Sequence record: KP869111
Direction: 5' to 3' (one strand)
Length of the DNA stretch: 64,000 nt
Origin: Escherichia coli O157 typing phage 13
Below are positions 5,046-61,970 of this stretch, piece by piece (the stretch's first letter is position 1; every line of letters starts with the position of its first letter). Position numbers and translations under genes: made by a program. The notes under the pieces were generated by a model, which ran no database searches, was not told where the DNA came from, and saw nothing but the letters and a program-made list of their open reading frames with translations.

Positions 5046-5867
5046 TTAAGATTTCCAAACAGTATTCGCAGAGAAACGTTTTCCTTTTGACATAAATTGC
5101 TGAGTAGGTAACATGATTATGTTAGCCCAGTCTTTAGGAGCTATTTCTGTTATTGTTCCTCTAATGTGGCCTGGCAGGTATGCTTTAATCATTTTGTCCG
5201 CACCTTGAAATCCTTTCACCTTGCTCCAGTCTATCTTCAACTTTGTGTTATTAGTAATAGTAGTTGTGCTAGCATATTGCTTCAGCAATTCTTCAAGAAA
5301 CTGTTGTCGTGCTTTAGGTGGGATATAGTGCAAGTTTAACCCATACATCAAATTATGTTTACCTAATCCTAAATAAATAATCAAAGGATATCTGTCCCAA
5401 TACGGCAGAGTATCTTTATGTTTAGCATCATACACGTAAGTATAAATTTTGCCTGGCGTAGGCTTGACTACTTTATGACCTTTTACACTTTTCTTAATTG
5501 TTTCAACAAACCACTTAGATGATTTGTTGTTTACTGCTGCGCCTTCATTTCTAATCTTTTCTCGTATTGAACTGCGAAACGAGTTTATCATCAGAAGTTG
5601 ACGTTCTTGCTTATTGAGTTTATTTTTAGGTTTAGATTCAAGCGTTTCAATTTTCTGTGCAGTCTTAATAGATGATGCATATCTAGACATTGCAGATGTA
5701 AACGACGAGTATTTTATTCCTTTTGATTCTGCAAATGCTTTTGCAGTGATTCCTTTCTCTTTAGCTTTCTTGTATTCTAATCCTATCTCAATCCATTTTC
5801 TTTCATTCATAGACTGAGCAATCTTAGGGGCTTGTACGCCTTCAGATATAATTTGGAATATGCTCAT
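5046..5867 (-). CDS. 2: gp2 DNA end protector protein
   Basis: 273 aa; T4 gene order 3-2-4. Confidence 0.85.
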
Positions 5868-5869
5868 AA

Positions 5870-6319
5870 TTACCCCTTGTATCCGAGTTTTCTAAGACCA
5901 TCTTCGGTTAGAACTCGAAATTTTATATTTCTCTTTTCAGCAACAGCTGAGGCAGCTTTCCATTTGTCACAGTTCACAGACCAGGTATATATTTCATTCA
6001 TATAACGTTTCTTTGCTGCGGTAGTAAGATTTGCGGGCTTAATAGGTGGTTGAGTTTCTTTCTTTGGTTTTATTTCTACAAAGAACTCTTGACCTGATGC
6101 ATCTTTCATCCATATGTCCATATAGTATCGACGTTTCTTACCTTCAGCATTACAAAAATATGGAATTACTGCTGTTTCACTACCCCATGCAATAATTTCT
6201 GGATTTTTATCCAACCATTCGAAAAAGAATTTTTCCCAGTTTGAACGATACGTTATTTTGGTATGGTCTCCACGGTATTTTTTTAAATTTTTTGGGACCC
6301 ATTTACCAGAGTAGGCCAT
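5870..6319 (-). CDS. 4: gp4 head completion protein
   Basis: Start moved to ATG at 6319 (MAYSGKW...); track ORF extends upstream in frame. Confidence 0.8.
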
Positions 6320-6330
6320 GTTGTCCTCCT

Positions 6331-6338
6331 TATAAATA
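6331..6338 (+). promoter_or_regulatory. late promoter TATAAATA upstream of gene 53
   Basis: Exact TATAAATA about 40 nt upstream of gp53 start. Confidence 0.6.
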
Positions 6339-6345
6339 GTATTAT

Positions 6346-6353
6346 TATTTATA
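6346..6353 (-). promoter_or_regulatory. late promoter TATAAATA (minus strand) upstream of gene 4
   Basis: Exact TATAAATA in the divergent 4/53 intergenic region. Confidence 0.55.
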
Positions 6354-6380
6354 CCAATTTCATATTGGAAGGAGACTATC

Positions 6381-6956
6381 TTGTTATTTACATTCTTCGA
6401 CCCAATAGGATATAGTGCTAAAACAGTTGATAAGAATGCACCTACTATTCCTATGACAGACATATTTCGTAACTATAAAGAGTACTTTAAGCGTGTGGCT
6501 GCCAATTATAGATTACGTTCTTATTATATTAAAGGCTCTCCGCGTCCTGAAGAACTAGCGAATATCATTTATGGCAACCCTCAATTATACTGGGTCCTTT
6601 TGATGTGCAACGATAACTACGACCCGTATTATGGTTGGATTACATCTCAGGAAGCAGCGTATCAAGCTTCTATTCAGAAATATGCTAATGCTGGCGGCGA
6701 CCAAGTTCTTTATCATATTAATGAAAATCGTGAGAAATTTTACAATTTGGTTTCATATCCGGACGAGCCTTTAGTGTGGTATGATAAAGGTGATGAAGCT
6801 CGTAAGTATCCGCAATATAAAGGACCTTTAGCTGCAGTAGATACTTATGAAGCTGCAGTATTAGATAATGAAAAACTTCGTAAAATAAAAATTGTTGCAA
6901 AAGAAGATATAAACTCGTTTATCACAGATTTGATTCGTGAGATGGAGATTGCATAA
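6381..6956 (+). CDS. 53: gp53 baseplate wedge protein
   Basis: 191 aa, TTG start after GGAGA; matches T4 gp53 from memory. Confidence 0.9.
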   Translation: MLFTFFDPIGYSAKTVDKNAPTIPMTDIFRNYKEYFKRVAANYRLRSYYIKGSPRPEELANIIYGNPQLYWVLLMCNDNYDPYYGWITSQEAAYQASIQKYANAGGDQVLYHINENREKFYNLVSYPDEPLVWYDKGDEARKYPQYKGPLAAVDTYEAAVLDNEKLRKIKIVAKEDINSFITDLIREMEIA

Positions 6957-8689
6957 TGGAAATGATTAGCAGTAGCCTTAATTGGTTCGTGGGTGTTGTC
7001 GAGGACAGAATGGACCCATTAAAACAAGGGCGAGTTCGAGTTCGAGTCGTTGGTCTTCATCCAGCACAGAGAGCACAAGGTGATGTACAAGGTATTCCTA
7101 CAGAAAAACTTCCATGGATGACTGTTATTCAACCTATTACGTCTGCATCAATGTCAGGTATTGGTGGTTCTGTTACAGGTCCTGTTGAAGGAACTCGAGT
7201 ATATGGTCATTTCTTAGACAAATGGAAAACAAACGGGATTGTACTTGGTACATACGGCGGAATCGTACGTGAAAAGCCTAATAGACTTGAAGGTTTTTCA
7301 GACCCGACAGGCCAGTATCCGCGACGTTTAGGTAATGATACGAACGTATTAAACCAAGGTGGTGAAGCTGGTTATTATTCAAACTCTAACGTAATTCAAG
7401 ATAACAACTTGGATTATGGTATAAACCCGGATGATACAGATTTAGCAAATATTCCGGAAGATGATGACCCTAATTTTACAATAACAGAAATGTTACGTCG
7501 TGACGAAGGTCTTCGTGATAAAGTGTATTGGGACCATCTCGGATATCCTACCGTAGGTATTGGACACCTTATAGTAATGGAAAAAACCCGAGATATGTCT
7601 AGAATTAATAAATTGTTATCCGATCAAGTAGGGCGTGAAGTAACAGGAAATCCTGGGACTATTACATTAGAAGAAGCAACAGCGTTATTTGAGAAAGACC
7701 TTGCTAAGATGCAGAAAGACATTCGTTCTAATTCTAAAGTAGGTCCTGTTTATGCTAAAATGAACAGATCTCGCCAAATGGCATTAGAAAACATGTGCTT
7801 CCAAATGGGCGTTGGTGGTGTAGCAAAATTCAATACTATGCTTAAAGCAATGGCCGAAGGCGATTGGAAAACTGCATACAAATCTGGACGCGATTCATTA
7901 TGGTTCCAACAGACTAAAGGGCGTGCTTCACGTGTAACAACAATTATTTTAACCGGTAACATGGAATCATACGGTGTTCCTGTTAAAACACCGCCTTCAC
8001 CAGGAGTTGGTGCTGATTTAGTTACTAGAAATACCGATCCGGAAGACCCTGCTGGTCCTCCTGTTCCATTAGATTCACGTATCCTTTTTAAAGAACCTGA
8101 ATCAAGTTATCGTGGTGAGTATCCATACGTTCATGCTATGGAAACAGAAAGTGGTCATATCCAAGAGTTTGACGATACTCCAGGTAATGAACGTTATCGC
8201 TTAGTTCATCCAACAGGGTCATATGAGGAAGTTTCTCCGTCTGGGCGTCGTACTCGTAAAACTGTAGAAGACCTTTTTGACATCACTAATGGTGATGGGA
8301 ACTTCTTGATTTCTGGCGATAAGCTTGTTAACGTTGGTGCTAATGAAATATATTATAACATGGCAGACCGCCTCCATCAAATAGACGGCAATGACACAAT
8401 CTTTATTCGTGGTAACCAATCTAAAACTGTTGAAGGCGATGGAACTCTTTACGTTAAGGGTAATATCAAAATAGTTGTTGACGGAAATGCAGATATTCTT
8501 GTTAAAGGTGATGCTAAAACTCAGGTCGAAGGGAATCATGATTACACCGTCAACGGAAACGTTAAATGGACTGTTAATGGTAATGTTGATATGACTGTTG
8601 CCGGTGATTGGGCAGAAAGAATGTCTACAATGAGCTCAGTAGCTTCAGGACAATACACTGTTGACGGATCTCGTATTGATATTGGGTAA
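6956..8689 (+). CDS. 5: gp5 baseplate hub / cell-puncturing protein with lysozyme domain
   Basis: 577 aa; T4-lysozyme-like segment DEGLRDKVYWDHLGYPTVGIGHL; C-terminal beta-helix repeats (VxGxxxxxV). Confidence 0.95.
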   Translation: MEMISSSLNWFVGVVEDRMDPLKQGRVRVRVVGLHPAQRAQGDVQGIPTEKLPWMTVIQPITSASMSGIGGSVTGPVEGTRVYGHFLDKWKTNGIVLGTYGGIVREKPNRLEGFSDPTGQYPRRLGNDTNVLNQGGEAGYYSNSNVIQDNNLDYGINPDDTDLANIPEDDDPNFTITEMLRRDEGLRDKVYWDHLGYPTVGIGHLIVMEKTRDMSRINKLLSDQVGREVTGNPGTITLEEATALFEKDLAKMQKDIRSNSKVGPVYAKMNRSRQMALENMCFQMGVGGVAKFNTMLKAMAEGDWKTAYKSGRDSLWFQQTKGRASRVTTIILTGNMESYGVPVKTPPSPGVGADLVTRNTDPEDPAGPPVPLDSRILFKEPESSYRGEYPYVHAMETESGHIQEFDDTPGNERYRLVHPTGSYEEVSPSGRRTRKTVEDLFDITNGDGNFLISGDKLVNVGANEIYYNMADRLHQIDGNDTIFIRGNQSKTVEGDGTLYVKGNIKIVVDGNADILVKGDAKTQVEGNHDYTVNGNVKWTVNGNVDMTVAGDWAERMSTMSSVASGQYTVDGSRIDIG

Positions 8690-15581: not shown

Positions 15582-15606
15582 GGGAGCCTTCGGGCTCCCA
15601 TTTTTG
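15582..15606 (+). terminator. intrinsic terminator hairpin GGGAGCC-UUCG-GGCUCCC followed by T-run
   Basis: Perfect stem with UUCG tetraloop then ATTTTTG after gp8 stop. Confidence 0.7.
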
Positions 15607-32611: not shown

Positions 32612-33424
32612 ATGATCAAAGAACAACTTTTGAAAGAAGCTCAGAACATCGAGACTTCAGTTGCTCTTAATAGTGTTTTCGAATCAGTAGAACTGTCTCC
32701 GGACGTTAAAGCTAATTTCAGCACTGTATTCGAAGCCACCGTTAAGCAGGAAGCAGTCAAACTGGCTGAATCTCATATCAAAGCCATCGCCGAAAAGGCC
32801 GAAGAAGAAGTTGAAAAGGCTAAAGAAGATGCTGAAGAGAAAGCTGATAAAAAATTGGCTGAACAAGCTTCTAAATTCCTAGACCATCTTGCAAAAGAAT
32901 GGCTCGCAGAAAACCAAATCGCAGTTGATAAAGGCATTAAAGCTGATTTGTTCGAATCCATGCTTGGTGGTCTGAAAGAACTGTTTGTTGAACATAACGT
33001 TGTTGTTCCAGAAGAATCTGTAGATGTTGTAGCAGAAATGGAAGAAGAGCTGGCCGAACATAAAGAAGAAACCGCTCGTTTGTTCGAAGAAGTTACCAAA
33101 CGTGATGCATATATCAATTACGTTCAGCGTGAAACCGCTATTAATGAAAGCGTGAAAGACCTGACTGAATCTCAGAAAGAAAAAGTTATTGGCCTGGTTG
33201 AAGGTATGGATTATTCTGACGCATTTGGTACTAAGTTAACTGCTATTGTAGAAATGGTTAAAGGTTCTACTAAAGAAGAAGCCGCTATTACCGAAAGTAT
33301 AAATACAGTTGACAATGACGCTGCCGGTCTTAATTTTGTTGCCGAAGCAGTTGACACTACCACAACTCAGGTAGAACAGAATTCTAATGTAAGTTTATAT
33401 GCGAAAGTCGCATCTCGTTTCTAA
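32612..33424 (+). CDS. 22: gp22 prohead core scaffold protein
   Basis: 270 aa, highly acidic/helical; synteny. Confidence 0.9.
   Translation: MIKEQLLKEAQNIETSVALNSVFESVELSPDVKANFSTVFEATVKQEAVKLAESHIKAIAEKAEEEVEKAKEDAEEKADKKLAEQASKFLDHLAKEWLAENQIAVDKGIKADLFESMLGGLKELFVEHNVVVPEESVDVVAEMEEELAEHKEETARLFEEVTKRDAYINYVQRETAINESVKDLTESQKEKVIGLVEGMDYSDAFGTKLTAIVEMVKGSTKEEAAITESINTVDNDAAGLNFVAEAVDTTTTQVEQNSNVSLYAKVASRF
33298..33305 (+). promoter_or_regulatory. late promoter TATAAATA inside the 3' end of gene 22, upstream of gene 23
   Basis: Exact motif about 137 nt upstream of gp23 ATG, as expected for T4 P23. Confidence 0.5.
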
Positions 33425-33441
33425 TTTAAAGGTTAACACAA

Positions 33442-35004
33442 ATGACTACTATCAAAACTAAAGCTCAGCTCGTAGACAAATGGAAAGAACTGCTGGAAGG
33501 TGAAGGCCTGCCGGAAATCGCTAATAGCAAGCAGGCTATTATCGCTAAAATCTTCGAAAACCAGGAAAAAGATTTCGAAGTATCCCCTGAATATAAAGAC
33601 GAGAAAATCGCTCAGGCATTTGGTTCTTTCTTGACCGAAGCTGAAATTGGTGGTGACCATGGTTATAATGCTCAGAACATCGCAGCAGGTCAAACCTCTG
33701 GTGCAGTAACCCAAATTGGGCCAGCAGTTATGGGTATGGTTCGTCGTGCTATTCCTAATCTGATCGCTTTTGATATTTGTGGTGTTCAGCCTATGAACAG
33801 CCCTACCGGTCAGGTATTTGCTCTCCGTGCAGTATATGGTAAAGACCCTATCGCTGCTGACGCTAAAGAAGCTTTCCATCCGATGTATGCTCCAGATGCG
33901 ATGTTCTCTGGTCAGGGTGCTGCTAAGAAATTCCCAGCTCTGGCTGCTAGCACACAAACCACAGTAGGTGATATCTATACTCACTTCTTCCAGGAAACTG
34001 GTACTGTATATCTGCAAGCTTCTGTTCAAGTAACAATCGATGCGACCGATGCTGCTAAATTAGATGCCGAAGTTAAGAAACAAATGGAAGCTGGTGCACT
34101 GGTAGAAATCGCTGAAGGTATGGCTACTTCTATCGCTGAACTCCAGGAAGGTTTCAACGGTTCTACCGATAACCCATGGAATGAAATGGGCTTCCGTATC
34201 GATAAACAAGTTATTGAAGCTAAATCTCGCCAGCTGAAAGCTGCTTACTCTATCGAATTAGCACAAGACCTCCGTGCAGTACACGGTATGGATGCTGATG
34301 CTGAACTGAGCGGTATTCTGGCTACAGAAATTATGCTAGAAATCAACCGTGAAGTTGTTGATTGGATTAACTACTCAGCACAGGTTGGTAAATCTGGTAT
34401 GACCCTGACTCCGGGTTCTAAAGCTGGTGTATTTGACTTCCAGGACCCGATTGATATCCGTGGTGCTCGTTGGGCCGGTGAAAGCTTTAAATCTCTGTTG
34501 TTCCAGATTGATAAAGAAGCAGTTGAAATTGCTCGTCAAACCGGTCGTGGTGAAGGTAACTTCATTATCGCTTCCCGTAACGTAGTTAACGTACTGGCTT
34601 CAGTTGATACTGGTATTTCTTACGCTGCACAGGGTCTGGCTTCCGGTTTTAATACCGACACTACTAAGTCTGTATTTGCCGGTGTACTTGGTGGTAAATA
34701 CCGCGTATACATCGACCAGTATGCTAAACAGGATTATTTCACCGTTGGTTACAAAGGCGCTAACGAAATGGATGCAGGTATTTACTATGCTCCTTACGTT
34801 GCACTTACCCCACTGCGTGGTTCTGATCCTAAGAACTTCCAGCCGGTAATGGGCTTTAAAACTCGTTACGGTATCGGTGTTAACCCGTTTGCTGAAAGTT
34901 CCCTGCAGGCTCCAGGTGCTCGCATCCAGTCCGGTATGCCATCTATCCTGAACAGCCTTGGTAAGAACGCTTACTTCCGCCGTGTATATGTAAAAGGCAT
35001 CTAA
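33442..35004 (+). CDS. 23: gp23 major capsid protein
   Basis: 520 aa; near-identical to T4 gp23 as I recall it. Confidence 0.97.
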   Translation: MTTIKTKAQLVDKWKELLEGEGLPEIANSKQAIIAKIFENQEKDFEVSPEYKDEKIAQAFGSFLTEAEIGGDHGYNAQNIAAGQTSGAVTQIGPAVMGMVRRAIPNLIAFDICGVQPMNSPTGQVFALRAVYGKDPIAADAKEAFHPMYAPDAMFSGQGAAKKFPALAASTQTTVGDIYTHFFQETGTVYLQASVQVTIDATDAAKLDAEVKKQMEAGALVEIAEGMATSIAELQEGFNGSTDNPWNEMGFRIDKQVIEAKSRQLKAAYSIELAQDLRAVHGMDADAELSGILATEIMLEINREVVDWINYSAQVGKSGMTLTPGSKAGVFDFQDPIDIRGARWAGESFKSLLFQIDKEAVEIARQTGRGEGNFIIASRNVVNVLASVDTGISYAAQGLASGFNTDTTKSVFAGVLGGKYRVYIDQYAKQDYFTVGYKGANEMDAGIYYAPYVALTPLRGSDPKNFQPVMGFKTRYGIGVNPFAESSLQAPGARIQSGMPSILNSLGKNAYFRRVYVKGI

Positions 35005-35028
35005 TCTTAATTGATTAAATCTTATTTT

Positions 35029-35052
35029 GGGAGACTTCGGTCTCCCATTTTT
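35029..35052. terminator. bidirectional intrinsic terminator GGGAGAC-UUCG-GUCUCCC with flanking T/A runs
   Basis: Perfect 7-bp stem, UUCG loop; follows gp23 stop and minus-strand ORF stop. Confidence 0.75.
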
Positions 35053-35056
35053 GGTT

Positions 35057-35326
35057 TTATTTCTGTGCAATTTTGATGTAAGTTTTCAAAATATTTTGCC
35101 AATTAGGCATACCTTCTTGGACATATGCCGGAGAACCATCTTTGTTTTTGAATGATGCAAGTTTATCAGTGGCCCAATAACCTTTAGCTCGAGCTTCAGA
35201 ATCAACTTTCATCCATACTTTGTTGAAGGCATTACCATTAACTTTTGCACCATATTTTTCTACTAACTTAACTGCTTCAGCTTCCAGAACTTTTAAAGTA
35301 TCTCGTAAGAAACGTGCTTTAGTCAT
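35057..35326 (-). CDS. hypothetical early protein (89 aa) inserted between genes 23 and 24
   Basis: Own early promoter, GAGGAG RBS, ATG at 35326, terminator downstream. Confidence 0.7.
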   Translation of the reverse strand: MTKARFLRDTLKVLEAEAVKLVEKYGAKVNGNAFNKVWMKVDSEARAKGYWATDKLASFKNKDGSPAYVQEGMPNWQNILKTYIKIAQK

Positions 35327-35356
35327 TTTGTTTACTCCTCTGTAGTTGATAAGTCT

Positions 35357-35386
35357 ATAGTATCACATACCAAATACGTTGTAAAC
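35357..35386 (-). promoter_or_regulatory. T4-type early promoter (GTTTAC - 18 nt - TGTGATACTAT)
   Basis: Consensus-like elements upstream of the 89-aa minus-strand ORF. Confidence 0.6.
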
Positions 35387-35392
35387 AATCTT

Positions 35393-35400
35393 TATAAATA
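35393..35400 (+). promoter_or_regulatory. late promoter TATAAATA upstream of gene 24
   Basis: Exact motif 27 nt upstream of gp24 ATG. Confidence 0.65.
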
Positions 35401-35427
35401 ATCTATATCACATAAGGAAAAAATGCA

Positions 35428-36711
35428 ATGAGTAAAATCCAAAAATTATTGCGTGAATCTACAACGTCTACTAGCAACTCAATTGGTCGCCCAAATCTCG
35501 TTGCTTTGACTCGCGCTACGACTAAATTAATATATTCTGACATTGTAGCAACACAAAGAACTAATCAACCTGTTGCTGCTTTTTATGGTATCAAATATCT
35601 TAACCCAGATAACGAATTCACATTTAAAACCGGTGCTACTTATGCTGGCGAAGTTGGATATGTAGACCGAGAAAAAATTACTGAACTCACAGAAGAATCA
35701 AAAGTCACACTAAATAAAGGTGATTTTTTCAAATATAATAATATCGTCTATAAAGTGTTAGAAGATACACCATTTGCAGATATTCAAGAAAGTGATCTAG
35801 AATTAGCTCTTCAGATTGCAGTCGTTCATTTAAAGGTACGGTTATTTTCAGATGCAGCGGTAACAAGCAAATTTGAAAGCTCTGATAGCGAAATTTCTGA
35901 TGCAAGATTCCAGATTAATAAATGGCAAACTTCAGTCAAATCTCGCAAACTTAAAACTGGTCTCACGGTTGAATTAGCGCAAGATTTGGAAGCGAATGGA
36001 TTTGATGCCCCTAACTTCTTAGAGGATTTGCTTGCTACTGAAATGGCTGATGAAATTAATAAAGATATTCTTCAGTCTTTAATTACTGTATCGAAACGTT
36101 ATAAAGTTACTGGAATTACTGACACCGGATTTATTGACTTGAGCTATGCATCCGCTCCAGAAGCAGGTCGTTCATTATATCGAATGGTGTGTGAAATGGT
36201 ATCACACATTCAAAAAGAGACAACTTATACTGCAACGTTTTGTGTAGCCTCAGCTCGTGCAGCTGCTATTCTTGCTGCTTCCGGTTGGTTAAAACATAAG
36301 CCAGAAGATGACAAGTATCTTTCACAAAATGCTTATGGATTCTTGGCAAATGGATTACCTCTTTACTGCGATACCAACAGTCCGTTAGATTATGTTATTG
36401 TTGGTGTTGTAGAAAATATCGGCGAAAAAGAAATTGTAGGGTCCATCTTTTATGCTCCATACACTGAAGGAGTAGATTTAGATGACCCGGAACATGTTGG
36501 TGCATTTAAAGTTGTAGTTGATCCAGAAAGCTTGCAACCGTCTATCGGATTATTGGTTAGATATGCTTTATCAGCAAATCCTTACACAGTAGCAAAAGAC
36601 GAAAAAGAAGCGAGAATAATTGATGGTGGGGACATGGATAAAATGGCAGGACGTTCAGACTTGTCTGTTTTACTCGGTGTTAAATTGCCTAAAATTATTA
36701 TAGATGAATAA
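35428..36711 (+). CDS. 24: gp24 head vertex protein
   Basis: 427 aa, paralog-like to gp23; synteny. Confidence 0.9.
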   Translation: MSKIQKLLRESTTSTSNSIGRPNLVALTRATTKLIYSDIVATQRTNQPVAAFYGIKYLNPDNEFTFKTGATYAGEVGYVDREKITELTEESKVTLNKGDFFKYNNIVYKVLEDTPFADIQESDLELALQIAVVHLKVRLFSDAAVTSKFESSDSEISDARFQINKWQTSVKSRKLKTGLTVELAQDLEANGFDAPNFLEDLLATEMADEINKDILQSLITVSKRYKVTGITDTGFIDLSYASAPEAGRSLYRMVCEMVSHIQKETTYTATFCVASARAAAILAASGWLKHKPEDDKYLSQNAYGFLANGLPLYCDTNSPLDYVIVGVVENIGEKEIVGSIFYAPYTEGVDLDDPEHVGAFKVVVDPESLQPSIGLLVRYALSANPYTVAKDEKEARIIDGGDMDKMAGRSDLSVLLGVKLPKIIIDE

Positions 36712-36722
36712 ACAAAAAAAAA

Positions 36723-36743
36723 GGGACCTTACGGTCCCTTTTT
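36723..36743. terminator. bidirectional intrinsic terminator GGGACC-UUAC-GGUCCC between A-run and T-run
   Basis: Hairpin lies between convergent genes 24 (+) and rnlB (-). Confidence 0.75.
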
Positions 36744-36745
36744 CG

Positions 36746-37744
36746 TTATGATACTAATTCAATCCATGCAGGACGCAGAACATCTTGCACCATTCGGACT
36801 AATTCTTTCTTAACAAGATTCGGATTATCGGATGATGTTAATACAATACCTTCACGAGAAGTTTCTTCCAGAATATCTTGAACAGTCAATCCCATCACTT
36901 TGCCAAAATCTTTTGGCGTTACAGTCCCAATCTTAGAAATCACATTATTAACACGGTTTAATGTAACATAACAAGCTAGGACATCAAGCAAGTTTTTGTC
37001 AATTTCGGTTAATGGAACCTGAGTTTTAATAGGCTTATCAGACTTTTTCTTTTCACTGAATTTAGAGTTCTTACACTTAATAGCTACACGAGTACCGTTT
37101 GGCAGCCATTTAGGGAAACAAGGCTTCAGAACATAACCTTCTGCTGTATTATCACCAATAACATTAGCATCAAATACGCAATTATTTGCTTCGACAAGGT
37201 CTTCTGACGCAGTAGCATTATAAGCGGCTAAGACGGAATCAAGGTCGTTTGGAATCATGATAAGAGCATCAAATGTGCCACGACCAAGCATTGGTGCCAT
37301 TTTAAAACCGAATTCATTACAGAAATCTTGCATTTCGTAATCAGTCAAATACGTATTATCACCACTTTCTGTATTGATAATGATATCGAACACATAAAAA
37401 TCTTTTTCACCGTAGTCAACACCTTTCTGGATTCCACCACCAGCGAATTCACCGAATACTTGATATGATACGGCTCGAGCTGTGTACATGAATTCCTGAA
37501 CGGCTTTAATAGCTTTATCATACTTCTTGAGTACGATTTCATAACCATAAAAATCTTCTGCTGGAAGAATAGGGCCTGTGCGCTTGGCGCATGTGACGTT
37601 GTCACGTTCAATAATTAAACTAAAGTTGGTCCCATGGATTTTCTCACGTGCTACCCAAACACCAGTAGTCAAACCATTAGTGTAGAGTTTTTCAATAAAC
37701 TTAGAGTTGTAGTGGTTTTCAAGACTGCTGTATTTCTTAAACAT
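36746..37744 (-). CDS. rnlB: RNA ligase 2 (Rnl2)
   Basis: 332 aa; nucleotidyltransferase motif I KIHGTN; matches T4 Rnl2 N-terminus from memory. Confidence 0.9.
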
Positions 37745-37835
37745 AAATCACCATTATAAATAATAATATCAAAATAATTAGCAGAGACTCTGTCTCCGAC
37801 CCGATGTTTAATTTGAATGGATAGAACCTAGATTC

Positions 37836-37863
37836 ATTATACCATCAAAAAATGTAAAGCATA
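37836..37863 (-). promoter_or_regulatory. candidate middle promoter for rnlB: MotA box TATGCTTTA - 13 nt - TATAAT
   Basis: MotA-box consensus and perfect -10 on minus strand. Confidence 0.45.
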
Positions 37864-38115
37864 TTAGAACTTGATTTCTATCCAATGCCCATCACGTTGG
37901 TCATGATTAATTTTGTACTGAAAGCCGTTATCACGAAGCCATTGACCGACTTGCTCGGTGATAGTTAAATCATTCTTTGATGGATAGTACGTGAATTGTG
38001 TCTGGCCTTTGTCAGCGGCTTTCTCTGCCATCACAGAGAAGTTAGTAATAAAATCACTCAACAAATTGGCTTTAGTGGCCAGAGCCCTTTCTCTTAATTC
38101 CTGTGCAAAACTCAT
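37864..38115 (-). CDS. hypothetical protein (24.2 position)
   Basis: 83-aa ORF, stop/start overlap with neighbour. Confidence 0.6.
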   Translation of the reverse strand: MSFAQELRERALATKANLLSDFITNFSVMAEKAADKGQTQFTYYPSKNDLTITEQVGQWLRDNGFQYKINHDQRDGHWIEIKF

Positions 38116-38312
38116 TTCTTCACCTTTTTGTTAATCAAACGTTTACGGTATACAACTTTTTCTTTTGCTTTAAACTTTGACCGAGCTGTCTCGGCTTTAG
38201 TCCATAGTAATCCAACTTCTTTAGGTTGTAAACCGATTTTTTGAGCAATTTCTACGAATGAAAATCCCGCCTCATGTAATGTATAAACTTCAACTTCAGC
38301 TCTCATAATCAA
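38112..38312 (-). CDS. small putative HTH DNA-binding protein (24.3 position) with basic tail
   Basis: 66 aa; HTH-like segment FVEIAQKIGLQPKEVGLL. Confidence 0.6.
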   Translation of the reverse strand: MIMRAEVEVYTLHEAGFSFVEIAQKIGLQPKEVGLLWTKAETARSKFKAKEKVVYRKRLINKKVKK

Positions 38313-58384: not shown

Positions 58385-58413
58385 ATAGTAACACATCCTA
58401 CAGGAGAGTAAAC
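58385..58413 (-). promoter_or_regulatory. T4-type early promoter (GTTTAC - 17 nt - TACTAT)
   Basis: Consensus-like elements upstream of ATG at 58343. Confidence 0.55.
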
Positions 58414-58449
58414 ATCTTTTTAATCTTTTTCTGCCCTAAACGCACAAAA

Positions 58450-58467
58450 GGGAGACCGAAGTCTCCC
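58450..58467 (-). terminator. hairpin GGGAGAC-UUCG-GUCUCCC followed by UUUUG (minus strand)
   Basis: Perfect 7-bp stem immediately after stop of the small basic ORF. Confidence 0.6.
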
Positions 58468-59992: not shown

Positions 59993-60563
59993 AAAAGTTT
60001 CGGATTTGTTCCCAATTCAGAGAACGAAGATTATTACGAGAGTACTGAATTACTTCAATACCGGCTTGTTTTAGAATGTCTGCCCAATTTTCAGGAGATC
60101 TGTCATATAATTCTGCGTATACAACCTTTTTAATACCTGACTGTGTAATAGCTTTAGTGCAATCAGGACATGGAGAAAGTGTCGTATACAACGTAGCACC
60201 TTCAATAGAATTACCTTTACGAGCTGCAAACAAAATTGCATTCAGTTCCGCATGGATTTCGTTATTAGCGGACCATGCACTATGAGCAGCCCGATGTTCT
60301 TTAGCCAAAACAAAATTATCCACCCGTCCAAATGCTGTAGTGCCTTCTTTATGCCCAGCAACGATGACCGGGCTTGGTTTATTCTTCAACCAACCGTTTT
60401 CGGATGCATGTTCACAACAGTTAACACCACCGGCCGGGCTACCGTTATACCCAGTAGAGATAATGCGTCCATCTTTTTCAATGACGGCACCAACTTTCCA
60501 TGAACAACATTTTGATTCTTGAGAAATCAAATAAGCAATTTGAAGATATGTGCTAGCTTTCAT
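59982..60563 (-). CDS. cd: dCMP deaminase
   Basis: 193 aa; zinc-binding motifs HAELNAI and PCPDC. Confidence 0.95.
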   Translation of the reverse strand: MKASTYLQIAYLISQESKCCSWKVGAVIEKDGRIISTGYNGSPAGGVNCCEHASENGWLKNKPSPVIVAGHKEGTTAFGRVDNFVLAKEHRAAHSAWSANNEIHAELNAILFAARKGNSIEGATLYTTLSPCPDCTKAITQSGIKKVVYAELYDRSPENWADILKQAGIEVIQYSRNNLRSLNWEQIRNFCGE

Positions 60564-61555
60564 TATTGAACCTTATTAATATAAGTTAACAGCTCTTTAG
60601 TTTGTTCCCAACTGATGCACGCATCGGTAACGGAAACGCCATAGGACATATTATCAGAAATTTTTTGATTTCCTTCATGTAGGAATGATTCTATCATAAT
60701 TCCTTTGACCAAATCATTAGCTGCTAAATTTTTACCAATACCAATTTGATTGCTATAATGCCCATCAGCGTTTGCATGGCTACAGTCAACCATTACATAA
60801 TGATTCAGACCTACTGCCCTTGCTTTGTTAGAAGCTTCTTGAATATCAGAAGAATGATAGTTCGGGCCGTTGGTCCCGCCACGCAATACGATATGCGTAT
60901 TCTGATTACCTTCAGCTTCAACAATGCCTACAGTACCATCGACGTCCATACCCATATACCGATGAGGCCAGGCGGCACTATACATCGCGTCTGTAGCTAC
61001 TTTAATAGAACCATTGGTTGCGTTCTTGAAGCCTACGCACATCGGTAGACCTGAAGCAATTTCACGATGTGTCTGACTTTCAGTCGTACGGGCGCCAATA
61101 GCAACCCATGAGAAAATACCAGAAAGATACTTAATCGTGAATGGGTCTAATACTTCAGTTGCTAATGGAAGTCCCATACGTAGAAGTTTACGACACAATG
61201 TTCGTGCAACTATAAGACCGTGGTTCATATCAAAACTTCCGTCAAGATATGGATCATTTACAAGACCTTTCCAACCTACGGTAGTTCGAGGCTTTTCAAA
61301 ATAAACGCGCATCACTAACAGAACATTAGGAAGACGAGTTTGAAGTTCAGCCAGACGTTTGCCGTATTCAACAGCAGCAATAGGGTCATGAATTGAACAA
61401 GGACCTACAACAATAAGTTTGCGTGGGTCTTCACCGTTCATAATCGAATTAACTTGTTCGCGATGAGAAGCCACTTGTGATGCGTAAGCTTCCGACAAAG
61501 GAATAATCTCAGCCAGTTCTTTTGGAGAAATAAGTTTTCCGACGACAGGTAACAT
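60563..61555 (-). CDS. 3-deoxy-D-arabino-heptulosonate 7-phosphate (DAHP) synthase, class I (AroG-like)
   Basis: 330 aa; collinear with E. coli AroG from memory; KPRTTVGWKGL motif and metal ligands C (GPCSIHDP), H (DCSHAN), E (ESFLHEGNQ), D (SVTDACI); stop overlaps cd start. Confidence 0.9.
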   Translation of the reverse strand: MLPVVGKLISPKELAEIIPLSEAYASQVASHREQVNSIMNGEDPRKLIVVGPCSIHDPIAAVEYGKRLAELQTRLPNVLLVMRVYFEKPRTTVGWKGLVNDPYLDGSFDMNHGLIVARTLCRKLLRMGLPLATEVLDPFTIKYLSGIFSWVAIGARTTESQTHREIASGLPMCVGFKNATNGSIKVATDAMYSAAWPHRYMGMDVDGTVGIVEAEGNQNTHIVLRGGTNGPNYHSSDIQEASNKARAVGLNHYVMVDCSHANADGHYSNQIGIGKNLAANDLVKGIMIESFLHEGNQKISDNMSYGVSVTDACISWEQTKELLTYINKVQ

Positions 61556-61658: not shown

Positions 61659-61678
61659 TAATGAGATAGCTCTCATTA
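61659..61678 (-). promoter_or_regulatory. hairpin AAUGAGA-GCUA-UCUCAUU overlapping the stop codon of the upstream ORF, in the leader of the DAHP synthase gene
   Basis: 7-bp perfect stem; no U-tract. Confidence 0.4.
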
Positions 61679-61912
61679 TAGTGTTCCATATACTCGAGTT
61701 GCTTCAACAAGACCATCACTGCCTAATTTAAGATTAGTAATTTGGTCACCATCTTTAGGATTAACGATTATGAGAAAAGAACGTGGAGATTCTTGAATAA
61801 CTCGTAATGTTGCATCTTGGAAACGTTCAGACACTTTATTGATGAGTGCTTGAGCAAATTCTTTTACTTTAATCTGAAATTCGTGTACTGTAATTGGGTT
61901 TTCACTTAGCAT
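61676..61912 (-). CDS. hypothetical protein (78 aa)
   Basis: Own early promoter and GAGGAA RBS. Confidence 0.6.
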   Translation of the reverse strand: MLSENPITVHEFQIKVKEFAQALINKVSERFQDATLRVIQESPRSFLIIVNPKDGDQITNLKLGSDGLVEATRVYGTL

Positions 61913-61940: not shown

Positions 61941-61970
61941 ATAGTATCACAACTCCACCATGTTGTAAAC
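61941..61970 (-). promoter_or_regulatory. T4-type early promoter (GTTTAC - 18 nt - TGTGATACTAT)
   Basis: Consensus-like elements upstream of ATG at 61912. Confidence 0.6.

Follow-up and report, generated by a model that had tools for sequence, protein, structure and literature searches.

What a small open reading frame (ORF) is doing between two capsid genes, on the strand opposite to theirs, is the question raised by the region between genes 23 and 24 of Escherichia coli O157 typing phage 13 (KP869111), of which a stretch of 64,000 nucleotides, hereafter the window, was analysed. The window derives from a Mosigvirus, that is, an RB69-like T-even phage of the Tevenvirinae, and the ORF, with an ATG start and a TAA stop and encoding 89 residues, occupies positions 35057..35326 (-), where an earlier note made from the DNA letters alone had placed it. 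The gene is real and ordinary in kind, and we lean towards regarding it as a dispensable accessory early-gene cassette, lodged in a short gap, whose product most likely tunes host takeover or counters host defence. This assessment is based on the conservation of the protein, on the signals that surround its gene and on the repeated exchange of genes at this site, which are considered in turn below.

A coding gene with early expression signals

The ORF was found by tblastn in 239 phage records, with a single full-length match in 237 of them, and PHROG 6003, a family of unknown function, matches it over its entire length (E = 2.9e-45; residues 1-89 against positions 1-90 of a 90-position profile). 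In a comparison with the metagenomic ortholog on contig L020 (62% identity), the ratio of nonsynonymous to synonymous substitution rates (dN/dS, Nei-Gojobori) is 0.14, with proportions of synonymous and nonsynonymous differences (pS and pN) of 0.70 and 0.23, respectively; for the pair formed by phages JS98 and VR5, which is unsaturated (dS 0.37), the same method gives a dN/dS of 0.08. The ORF is thus conserved as coding in close relatives, and these sequence comparisons show it to be a true protein-coding gene on which purifying selection acts. The family is named 'hypothetical protein' in every source, and is so annotated in more than 200 phage genomes.

Profile searches of 5.8 billion clusters, together with an exhaustive HMMER search of 1.84 billion representatives, recovered a family of ~25 clusters at 90% identity, all of whose members are 83-93 residues long; a scan of JGI metagenome contigs and GTDB representative genomes with a profile of the non-T4 subfamily yielded no relatives. 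Outside the T-even phages, homologs of 35-40% identity are present in Acinetobacter phage ABPH49 (classified in the Vequintavirinae), in the metagenomic contigs L006 (related to Serratia myoviruses of ~145-150 kb) and L012, and on contig L022, which carries a lambda-J-type tail tip protein and is distantly related to 42-kb Serratia siphoviruses. Each of these homologs is directly preceded by a sigma70-like promoter of its own (TTGACA-N17-TATAAT types) and is surrounded by small ORFs of unknown function. Judged by the sequences recovered, the PHROG 6003-type family is small, phage-restricted and horizontally mobile.

Two features of these contigs were observed in passing. On the Vequintavirinae-like contig L006, the homolog is followed by ~1.7 kb without called genes (5600-7260), in which no tRNA was found. 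On L012 and L006, both of higher G+C content, the sigma70 promoter of each small gene near the homologs is close to consensus, and a GC-rich hairpin is embedded in, or overlaps, its spacer between -35 and -10 (for example TTGACA-CGGGCTTCGGCCCG-TGGTATAAT), an unusual promoter-hairpin composite.

Intact copies are not universal. In the RB69 reference genome (L003, NC_004928, 5292-5532), a +1 and a -1 frameshift and a cluster of substitutions split the ORF into RB69ORF188c and RB69ORF189c, which could reflect either real inactivation or a sequencing error of the 2003 era, and phages mogra and 310Ecol104PP also have broken or truncated copies. Taken together, these three records argue that the ORF is dispensable in culture. 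A seeming 160-residue fusion protein (P0058) was rejected, as it stems from a chimeric contig of 701 bp.

The signals upstream of the ORF are largely those described beforehand. The Shine-Dalgarno sequence GAGGAG, recognized in the earlier note as the ribosome-binding site (RBS), is present at 35335..35340 (-), 8 nt upstream of the ATG. Farther upstream lies a predicted T4-type early (sigma70) promoter at 35357..35386 (-), with a -35 element GTTTAC(A) at 35381-35386 and an extended -10 element TGTGATACTAT at 35357-35367. Both elements had been named correctly, but not their spacing: the 18 nt previously reported separate GTTTAC from TACTAT, whereas only 13 nt separate it from TGTGATACTAT. Expressed in sigma70 terms, the promoter reads TTTACA-17-TACTAT with a TG-extended -10; it is correctly oriented, lies ~30 nt 5' of the ATG and has an AT-rich region upstream, features by which T4-type early promoters are recognized from sequence.

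A generic sigma70 scan of 33000-37900 returned 12 sites against 13.4 expected, which is chance level, and in such AT-rich DNA is uninformative. The 18-base motif GTTTACA-N12-TGTGATACTAT is found four times exactly in the 64-kb window and five times at up to three mismatches, with 0.07 matches expected even when three mismatches are tolerated. All matches are on the minus strand. Each of the four exact copies is positioned 30-40 nt 5' of an RBS and ATG, ahead of a small minus-strand ORF, and two of those other than the copy discussed here precede small ORFs of DUF5498 and DUF7320; the fifth match (38204-38233), with three mismatches, is internal to an ORF. The DUF7320 ORF (61676-61912 (-)), with its exact motif copy at 61941-61970 (-), is situated upstream of a 330-residue ORF of DAHP synthase family I (Pfam E = 5e-75; 60563-61555 (-)), which, judged by its sequence, would place an auxiliary gene for aromatic amino-acid biosynthesis under early control.

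Orthologous loci retain the GTTTAC...TAnnAT promoter together with the adjoining TATAAATA, the T4-type late promoter of gene 24 (35393..35400 (+)). The two promoters are arranged back to back, with 6 nt between the late promoter and the -35 element of the early one, whose AT-rich upstream region the late promoter makes up; in phage SA20RB, where the gap is empty, this motif bears the annotation T4-late promoter. For RB69, Nolan et al. (2006) predicted an early promoter on the minus strand at the equivalent position (Pe:109605; PMC1524935, supplementary file 2) and a late promoter for gene 24 (Pl:109573; PMC1524935, supplementary file 4).

At its 3' end, the ORF runs into the intrinsic terminator of gene 23 (35028..35059 (+)), which was called by a terminator scan and consists of a stem-loop at 35028-35047 (GGGAGAC-UUCG-GUCUCCC; -16.1 kcal/mol, z = -4.6) and a T-run, ATTTTTGGTTTTA. 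The stop codon of the ORF lies within this T-run, the hairpin beginning 10 nt past it, and the hairpin is kept in all T-even loci examined. The suggestion that this terminator is bidirectional does not stand. On the plus strand the hairpin is followed by UUUUUGGUUUU; on the minus strand, the loop reads CGAA and the tail AAAAUAAGAUUUAA / AAAAUAAGAUUU, without a U-tract, and the scan calls the plus-strand site only. The element is therefore a canonical intrinsic terminator for gene 23 alone, which the ORF shares merely in a physical sense; a two-way terminator does exist, unlike in the window, at the VR20 locus. What had been called a self-contained cassette is, accordingly, a promoter-RBS-ORF unit placed precisely between the gene 23 terminator and the gene 24 late promoter, but one that lacks a terminator of its own.

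The gene 23 hairpin, GGGAGACTTCGGTCTCCC, recurs exactly (18 nt) at 58450-58467 (-), 37 nt upstream of an early promoter at 58385-58413. By its sequence, this hairpin and promoter (58385-58467 (-)) form a composite of stem-loop and early promoter that is like the early-promoter/stem-loop (PeSL) elements of T4-type phages. A further copy, at 92% identity, is found at 15582-15606 (+). The cassette is also bracketed by a 28-nt, 75%-complementary inverted repeat (35047-35074 and 35419-35446), one arm of which comprises the T-run and the end of the ORF and the other the 5' untranslated region and start of gene 24. This repeat may be a chance occurrence in AT-rich DNA; if real, it could pair in the RNA that reads through from gene 23 to gene 24.

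Exchange at the 23/24 gap

The gap is flanked upstream by gene 23, encoding the major capsid protein (33442..35004 (+); 520 residues), and downstream by gene 24, encoding the capsid vertex protein (35428..36711 (+); 427 residues), both so named in matching records; past gp24, the window continues with rnlB, 24.2, 24.3 and hoc on the minus strand, in the same order as RB69 and T4. The 423 bp between the gp23 and gp24 ORFs are 100% identical in E. coli O157 typing phages 3 and 6, and at least 95% identical in ~140 other records, nearly all of them Mosigvirus.

Comparison of this intergenic region across T4-like phages, which the earlier note had proposed, reveals a plastic site with five states. 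In most Tequatroviruses and in Jiaodavirus the gap is empty, containing only the gene 23 stop, the UUCG hairpin, the T-run, TATAAATA and an RBS ahead of gene 24 (~83 bp between the genes); from these contents, the cassette can be recognized as having been inserted after the T-run and ahead of the late promoter. In T4, T6 and ~50 other records, the gap holds only segD, a homing endonuclease gene, on the minus strand, in agreement with what the earlier note had stated for T4. The ORF of the window, here termed allele A, is found in ~120 Mosigvirus records. A second version, allele B (88 residues), has 33-36% identity to allele A and shares its length, fold and invariant residues; it occupies the gap in Dhakavirus (JS98 orf173), in Gapriverviruses, in VR-type phages and in some Tequatroviruses, including ZJUN4, whose copy is 98.9% identical to that of JS98. 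Finally, in ~38 records (LF82-type, AV114, ATK48, F2 and related Mosigviruses, and Dhakavirus IME341), allele B is followed 3 nt later by a gene for a 219-residue SegD homolog; that of LF82-9 (L025 1858-2517) has 57% identity to T4 SegD (223 residues).

The exchange of one allele for the other can be traced in LF82-9. Its identity to the window is 96.5% through gene 23 as far as the hairpin, and 95.5% from the RBS on. The promoter of LF82-9 is base-for-base that of the window up to GAGGAG, where the left recombination breakpoint lies and the allele switches; everything between RBS and hairpin is replaced. This pattern of identity locates the breakpoints of the allele swap in two short motifs common to all versions, the RBS and the terminator hairpin. 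At the level of sequence, the swap matches the PeSL shuffling model of T4-type phages, in which genes are shuffled at promoter/stem-loop motifs and such motifs within the conserved core accompany plastic non-essential genes (PMC4122927).

Several observations concern the neighbouring homing genes. In T4 (L005, NC_000866; 3234-3300 (-)), the sequence TTTACA-17-TATTAT with a TG-extended -10 lies directly upstream of segD and beside TATAAATA, in the same position as the early promoter of the window; according to a review, no segD-specific promoter could be identified (PMC2988022). The LF82-9 homolog starts at a point that aligns with the second ATG of T4 segD (MKYLIY). SegD-like GIY-YIG genes are likewise found next to the major capsid gene in phages RB16, KP27 and Matisse and in phages of Cronobacter and Enterobacter; with this position recurring in several T4-like genera, the 3' side of gene 23 may be a general homing region of the SegD-like family. 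In JS98-like phages and related metagenomic contigs (L002, L007 and L020), the ORF adjoins a tandem duplicate of gene 24 (24a, 24b).

It might be supposed from this arrangement that the ORF is itself a passenger or target of a SegD-type homing system, to which it would supply promoter, transcription unit and homing site, and that it has spread by co-conversion and not through any benefit to the phage. The close coupling of the two genes within one transcription unit in the ~38 genomes would agree with this, as would the occurrence of T4 segD alone at the same position and behind a positionally equivalent promoter-like sequence, the SegD-like genes adjoining the capsid gene in other T4-like genera, and the crossing of genera by the JS98-type allele, which is found in both Tequatrovirus ZJUN4 and Mosigvirus LF82-9. 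However, most carriers have no endonuclease, including the ~120 Mosigvirus records with allele A and most Dhakaviruses; nor is there one near the non-T4 homologs. The strong purifying selection on the protein likewise speaks for a function of its own product over mere carriage, and the flanks of LF82-9 are devoid of an extended co-conversion tract. Of the alternatives to an accessory factor this one survives best, yet we consider it unlikely.

The predicted protein and its possible modes of action

Profile searches and structure prediction, advised beforehand as a check, have produced a confident model of the protein, although neither has supplied a functional lead. The AlphaFold2 model, obtained with an alignment of 19 sequences, has a predicted local distance difference test score (pLDDT) of 94.2 and a predicted template modelling score (pTM) of 0.80. 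Its predicted topology comprises two helices (residues 3-25 and 31-48), a beta-hairpin (52-60 and 66-70) and a C-terminal helix (76-88). Polar residues that are invariant in the family cluster at the junction of helices 1 and 2 (N30, G31, N32 and N35) and at the end of strand 2 (Q70). The product of the ORF is predicted to be soluble and has an isoelectric point (pI) of ~9.8, and 18 of the 19 family members are similarly basic (pI 9.4-9.9); the proteins are practically cysteine-free and without a hydrophobic segment.

The sole match in BFVD is the other allele of the family itself (88 residues, 32% identity, same fold, template modelling score 0.87). Foldseek against the PDB gave nothing at E <= 0.001, a sequence profile search of the PDB gave a best E of 0.3, and NCBIfam and PADLOC searches of the ORF gave nothing meaningful. 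Literature searches that covered its locus tags, its PHROG identifier and Mosigvirus transcriptomes yielded nothing on this gene, nor any transcriptome data for a Mosigvirus.

A number of candidate relationships were examined and rejected. Pfam DUF4859 scores 17.9 bits against a gathering threshold of 22.6 and is matched by only two of the 19 members. A GIY-YIG/Seg homing endonuclease is excluded by length (89 residues against the 200-250 or so expected) and by the absence of any Pfam nuclease match. The likeness to a cytochrome b5-like domain extends over only ~31 residues (40-70), similar to the N-terminal beta-hairpin of a repeat protein, as compared with ~74 residues for the full domain with its heme/steroid-binding core, and there is no Cyt-b5 match in Pfam. 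Two proteins retrieved by HMMER are not homologs: P0011, with six Cyt-b5 repeats, owes its E value to inflation by 4-6 repeats, and P0009, an RTX/cadherin-type adhesin, to weak local matches summed over ten repeated stretches. Kinship with HU/IHF, suggested by similar size, charge and helix-helix-beta-helix order, receives an hhalign probability of 0.4%.

A small basic protein (pI 9.4-9.9) with a helical core and a beta-hairpin, with an early promoter and located beside the most highly expressed late gene, could conceivably be a nucleic-acid-binding regulator of the phage's own programme, for example a DNA- or RNA-binding protein made early and acting on transcription or translation. Such a role is difficult to reconcile with the absence of the ORF from most Tequatroviruses, which follow the same developmental programme, with its disruption in RB69, and with the presence of homologs in unrelated phages that have different regulatory circuits; moreover, similarity is lacking not only to HU/IHF, as noted above, but to any DNA-binding fold. 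A regulator of this kind is, in our estimation, quite unlikely.

The position of the gene also invites the view that RNA is the product, an early transcript antisense to gene 23, or colliding with read-through from gene 23 to gene 24, that would tune capsid expression, the ORF being incidental. The promoter does point at gene 23, antisense read-through into that gene is plausible as the hairpin lacks a U-tract in this orientation, and the cassette is set between two convergent or divergent signals. On the other hand, it is the protein that has been conserved while synonymous sites became saturated (pS 0.70 against pN 0.23), the unsaturated pair pointing the same way (dN/dS 0.08); the same protein recurs in other phages in wholly different genomic contexts, and its structure is confidently predicted. 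Rfam returned nothing but sub-threshold noise for 34500-36000. We regard RNA as the sole product as very unlikely. That the ORF is a chance or decaying reading frame in AT-rich intergenic DNA, as the frameshifted or truncated copies in the RB69 reference, mogra and 310Ecol104PP might suggest, is refuted by the conservation data, namely 237 intact records out of 239, alleles that retain length, fold and invariant residues at 33-36% identity, a dN/dS far below 1 and the PHROG 6003 match.

A proposed role and comparison with known systems

The reading that we favour, a conditional accessory factor, brings together the basic charge, the invariant polar residues, the architecture of the early promoter, the dispensability of the gene, its patchy distribution and its transfer between unrelated phages of Enterobacterales. 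Unmodified host RNA polymerase would transcribe the gene immediately after infection, and the transcript would probably read through the hairpin and enter the 3' end of gene 23 in antisense orientation, since no U-tract is present on the minus strand. Translation would yield a small, cysteine-free, basic (pI 9.4-9.9) alpha/beta protein displaying the invariant polar cluster N30-G31-N32, N35 and Q70. This product would most likely act stoichiometrically by binding an anionic partner, be it an acidic protein of the host, a nucleic acid or a signal derived from a nucleotide, and binding would tune the takeover of the host or counter a defence present in only some host strains. Our best guess from the sequence is, therefore, a dispensable host-interaction or anti-defence factor with an anionic target. 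The cassettes themselves would pass from phage to phage by recombination within the short motifs conserved at the promoter/RBS and at the hairpin, in a PeSL-like shuffling that SegD-type homing at the 23/24 site probably aids.

Four points weigh against this proposal. Early expression of the ORF is inferred from its promoter sequence. The family is small, with its ~25 clusters and no members in the JGI and GTDB scans, which limits comparative inference. The disrupted copies in RB69 and mogra would fit a marginal role as well as a conditional one. Lastly, in a canonical PeSL unit a stem-loop precedes the promoter, whereas the place upstream of the ORF promoter is taken here by the late promoter of gene 24.

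A bolder version of the proposal, which we put forward only tentatively, is that the ORF is the founding member of a structurally novel family of small basic early proteins, traded among at least three groups of Enterobacterales phages (T-even, Vequintavirinae-like and siphovirus), that use the Asn/Gln cluster to bind an anionic ligand and thereby neutralize a defence or a factor of the host. If this were true, the two diverged alleles at the 23/24 site would represent an arms race with different host targets.

Some of what is described here was known already: the gene has been annotated and catalogued, a prediction of the RB69 promoter dates from 2006, and cassettes of such architecture are well described. 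Absent from the searchable literature are a function for this family, an explicit account of the five states of the 23/24 gap and a mapped allele swap. A product that turned out to serve host takeover or anti-defence would enlarge the catalogue of such proteins by a new fold and a new target, and would explain why a site of gene exchange is kept open amid an essential capsid operon. Whatever the function, the modular shuffling of T-even phages can be seen here in a compact, natural form, confined to a 90-bp gap and with endpoints mapped to an RBS and a hairpin.

Among known systems, the entries PHROG 6003, JS98 orf173 and RB69ORF188c+189c, for none of which a function is recorded, do not differ from the ORF of the window, being the same family at the same locus. 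With phage morons, whose architecture the earlier note had invoked, the cassette has in common a promoter of its own, presence or absence at a precise site and horizontal sharing among unrelated phages. The resemblance is incomplete, in that the ORF lacks its own terminator and has a composition that is not unusual within the genome, and the phage is strictly lytic, so that expression to the benefit of a lysogen does not come into play.

The T4 segD locus corresponds in its insertion point, its opposite-strand orientation, the hairpin downstream and the promoter-like TTTACA-17-TATTAT by TATAAATA, and a SegD homolog stands directly behind allele B in the LF82-type Mosigviruses. The ORF of the window differs in having 89 residues and no nuclease signature, and its gap holds no endonuclease gene.

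The PeSL-flanked ORFan cassettes of T4-type phages (Arbiol et al. 2010, PMC2839356; Comeau et al. 2014, PMC4122927) offer a further parallel. Apart from the stem-loop missing upstream, the window departs from them in that its downstream stem-loop is the terminator of gene 23 and has the opposite orientation. Both nevertheless consist of a small novel ORF with an early promoter (TTTACW-N17-TAYWAT) and a conserved stem-loop as boundary, and both are located in the conserved core, where they are accompanied by 'plastic non-essential adaptive genes'. The identical hairpin followed by an early promoter at 58385-58467 adds to the likeness from elsewhere in the window, and at the 23/24 gap itself the breakpoints of the allele swap fall, as in those cassettes, in the promoter/RBS and the stem-loop.

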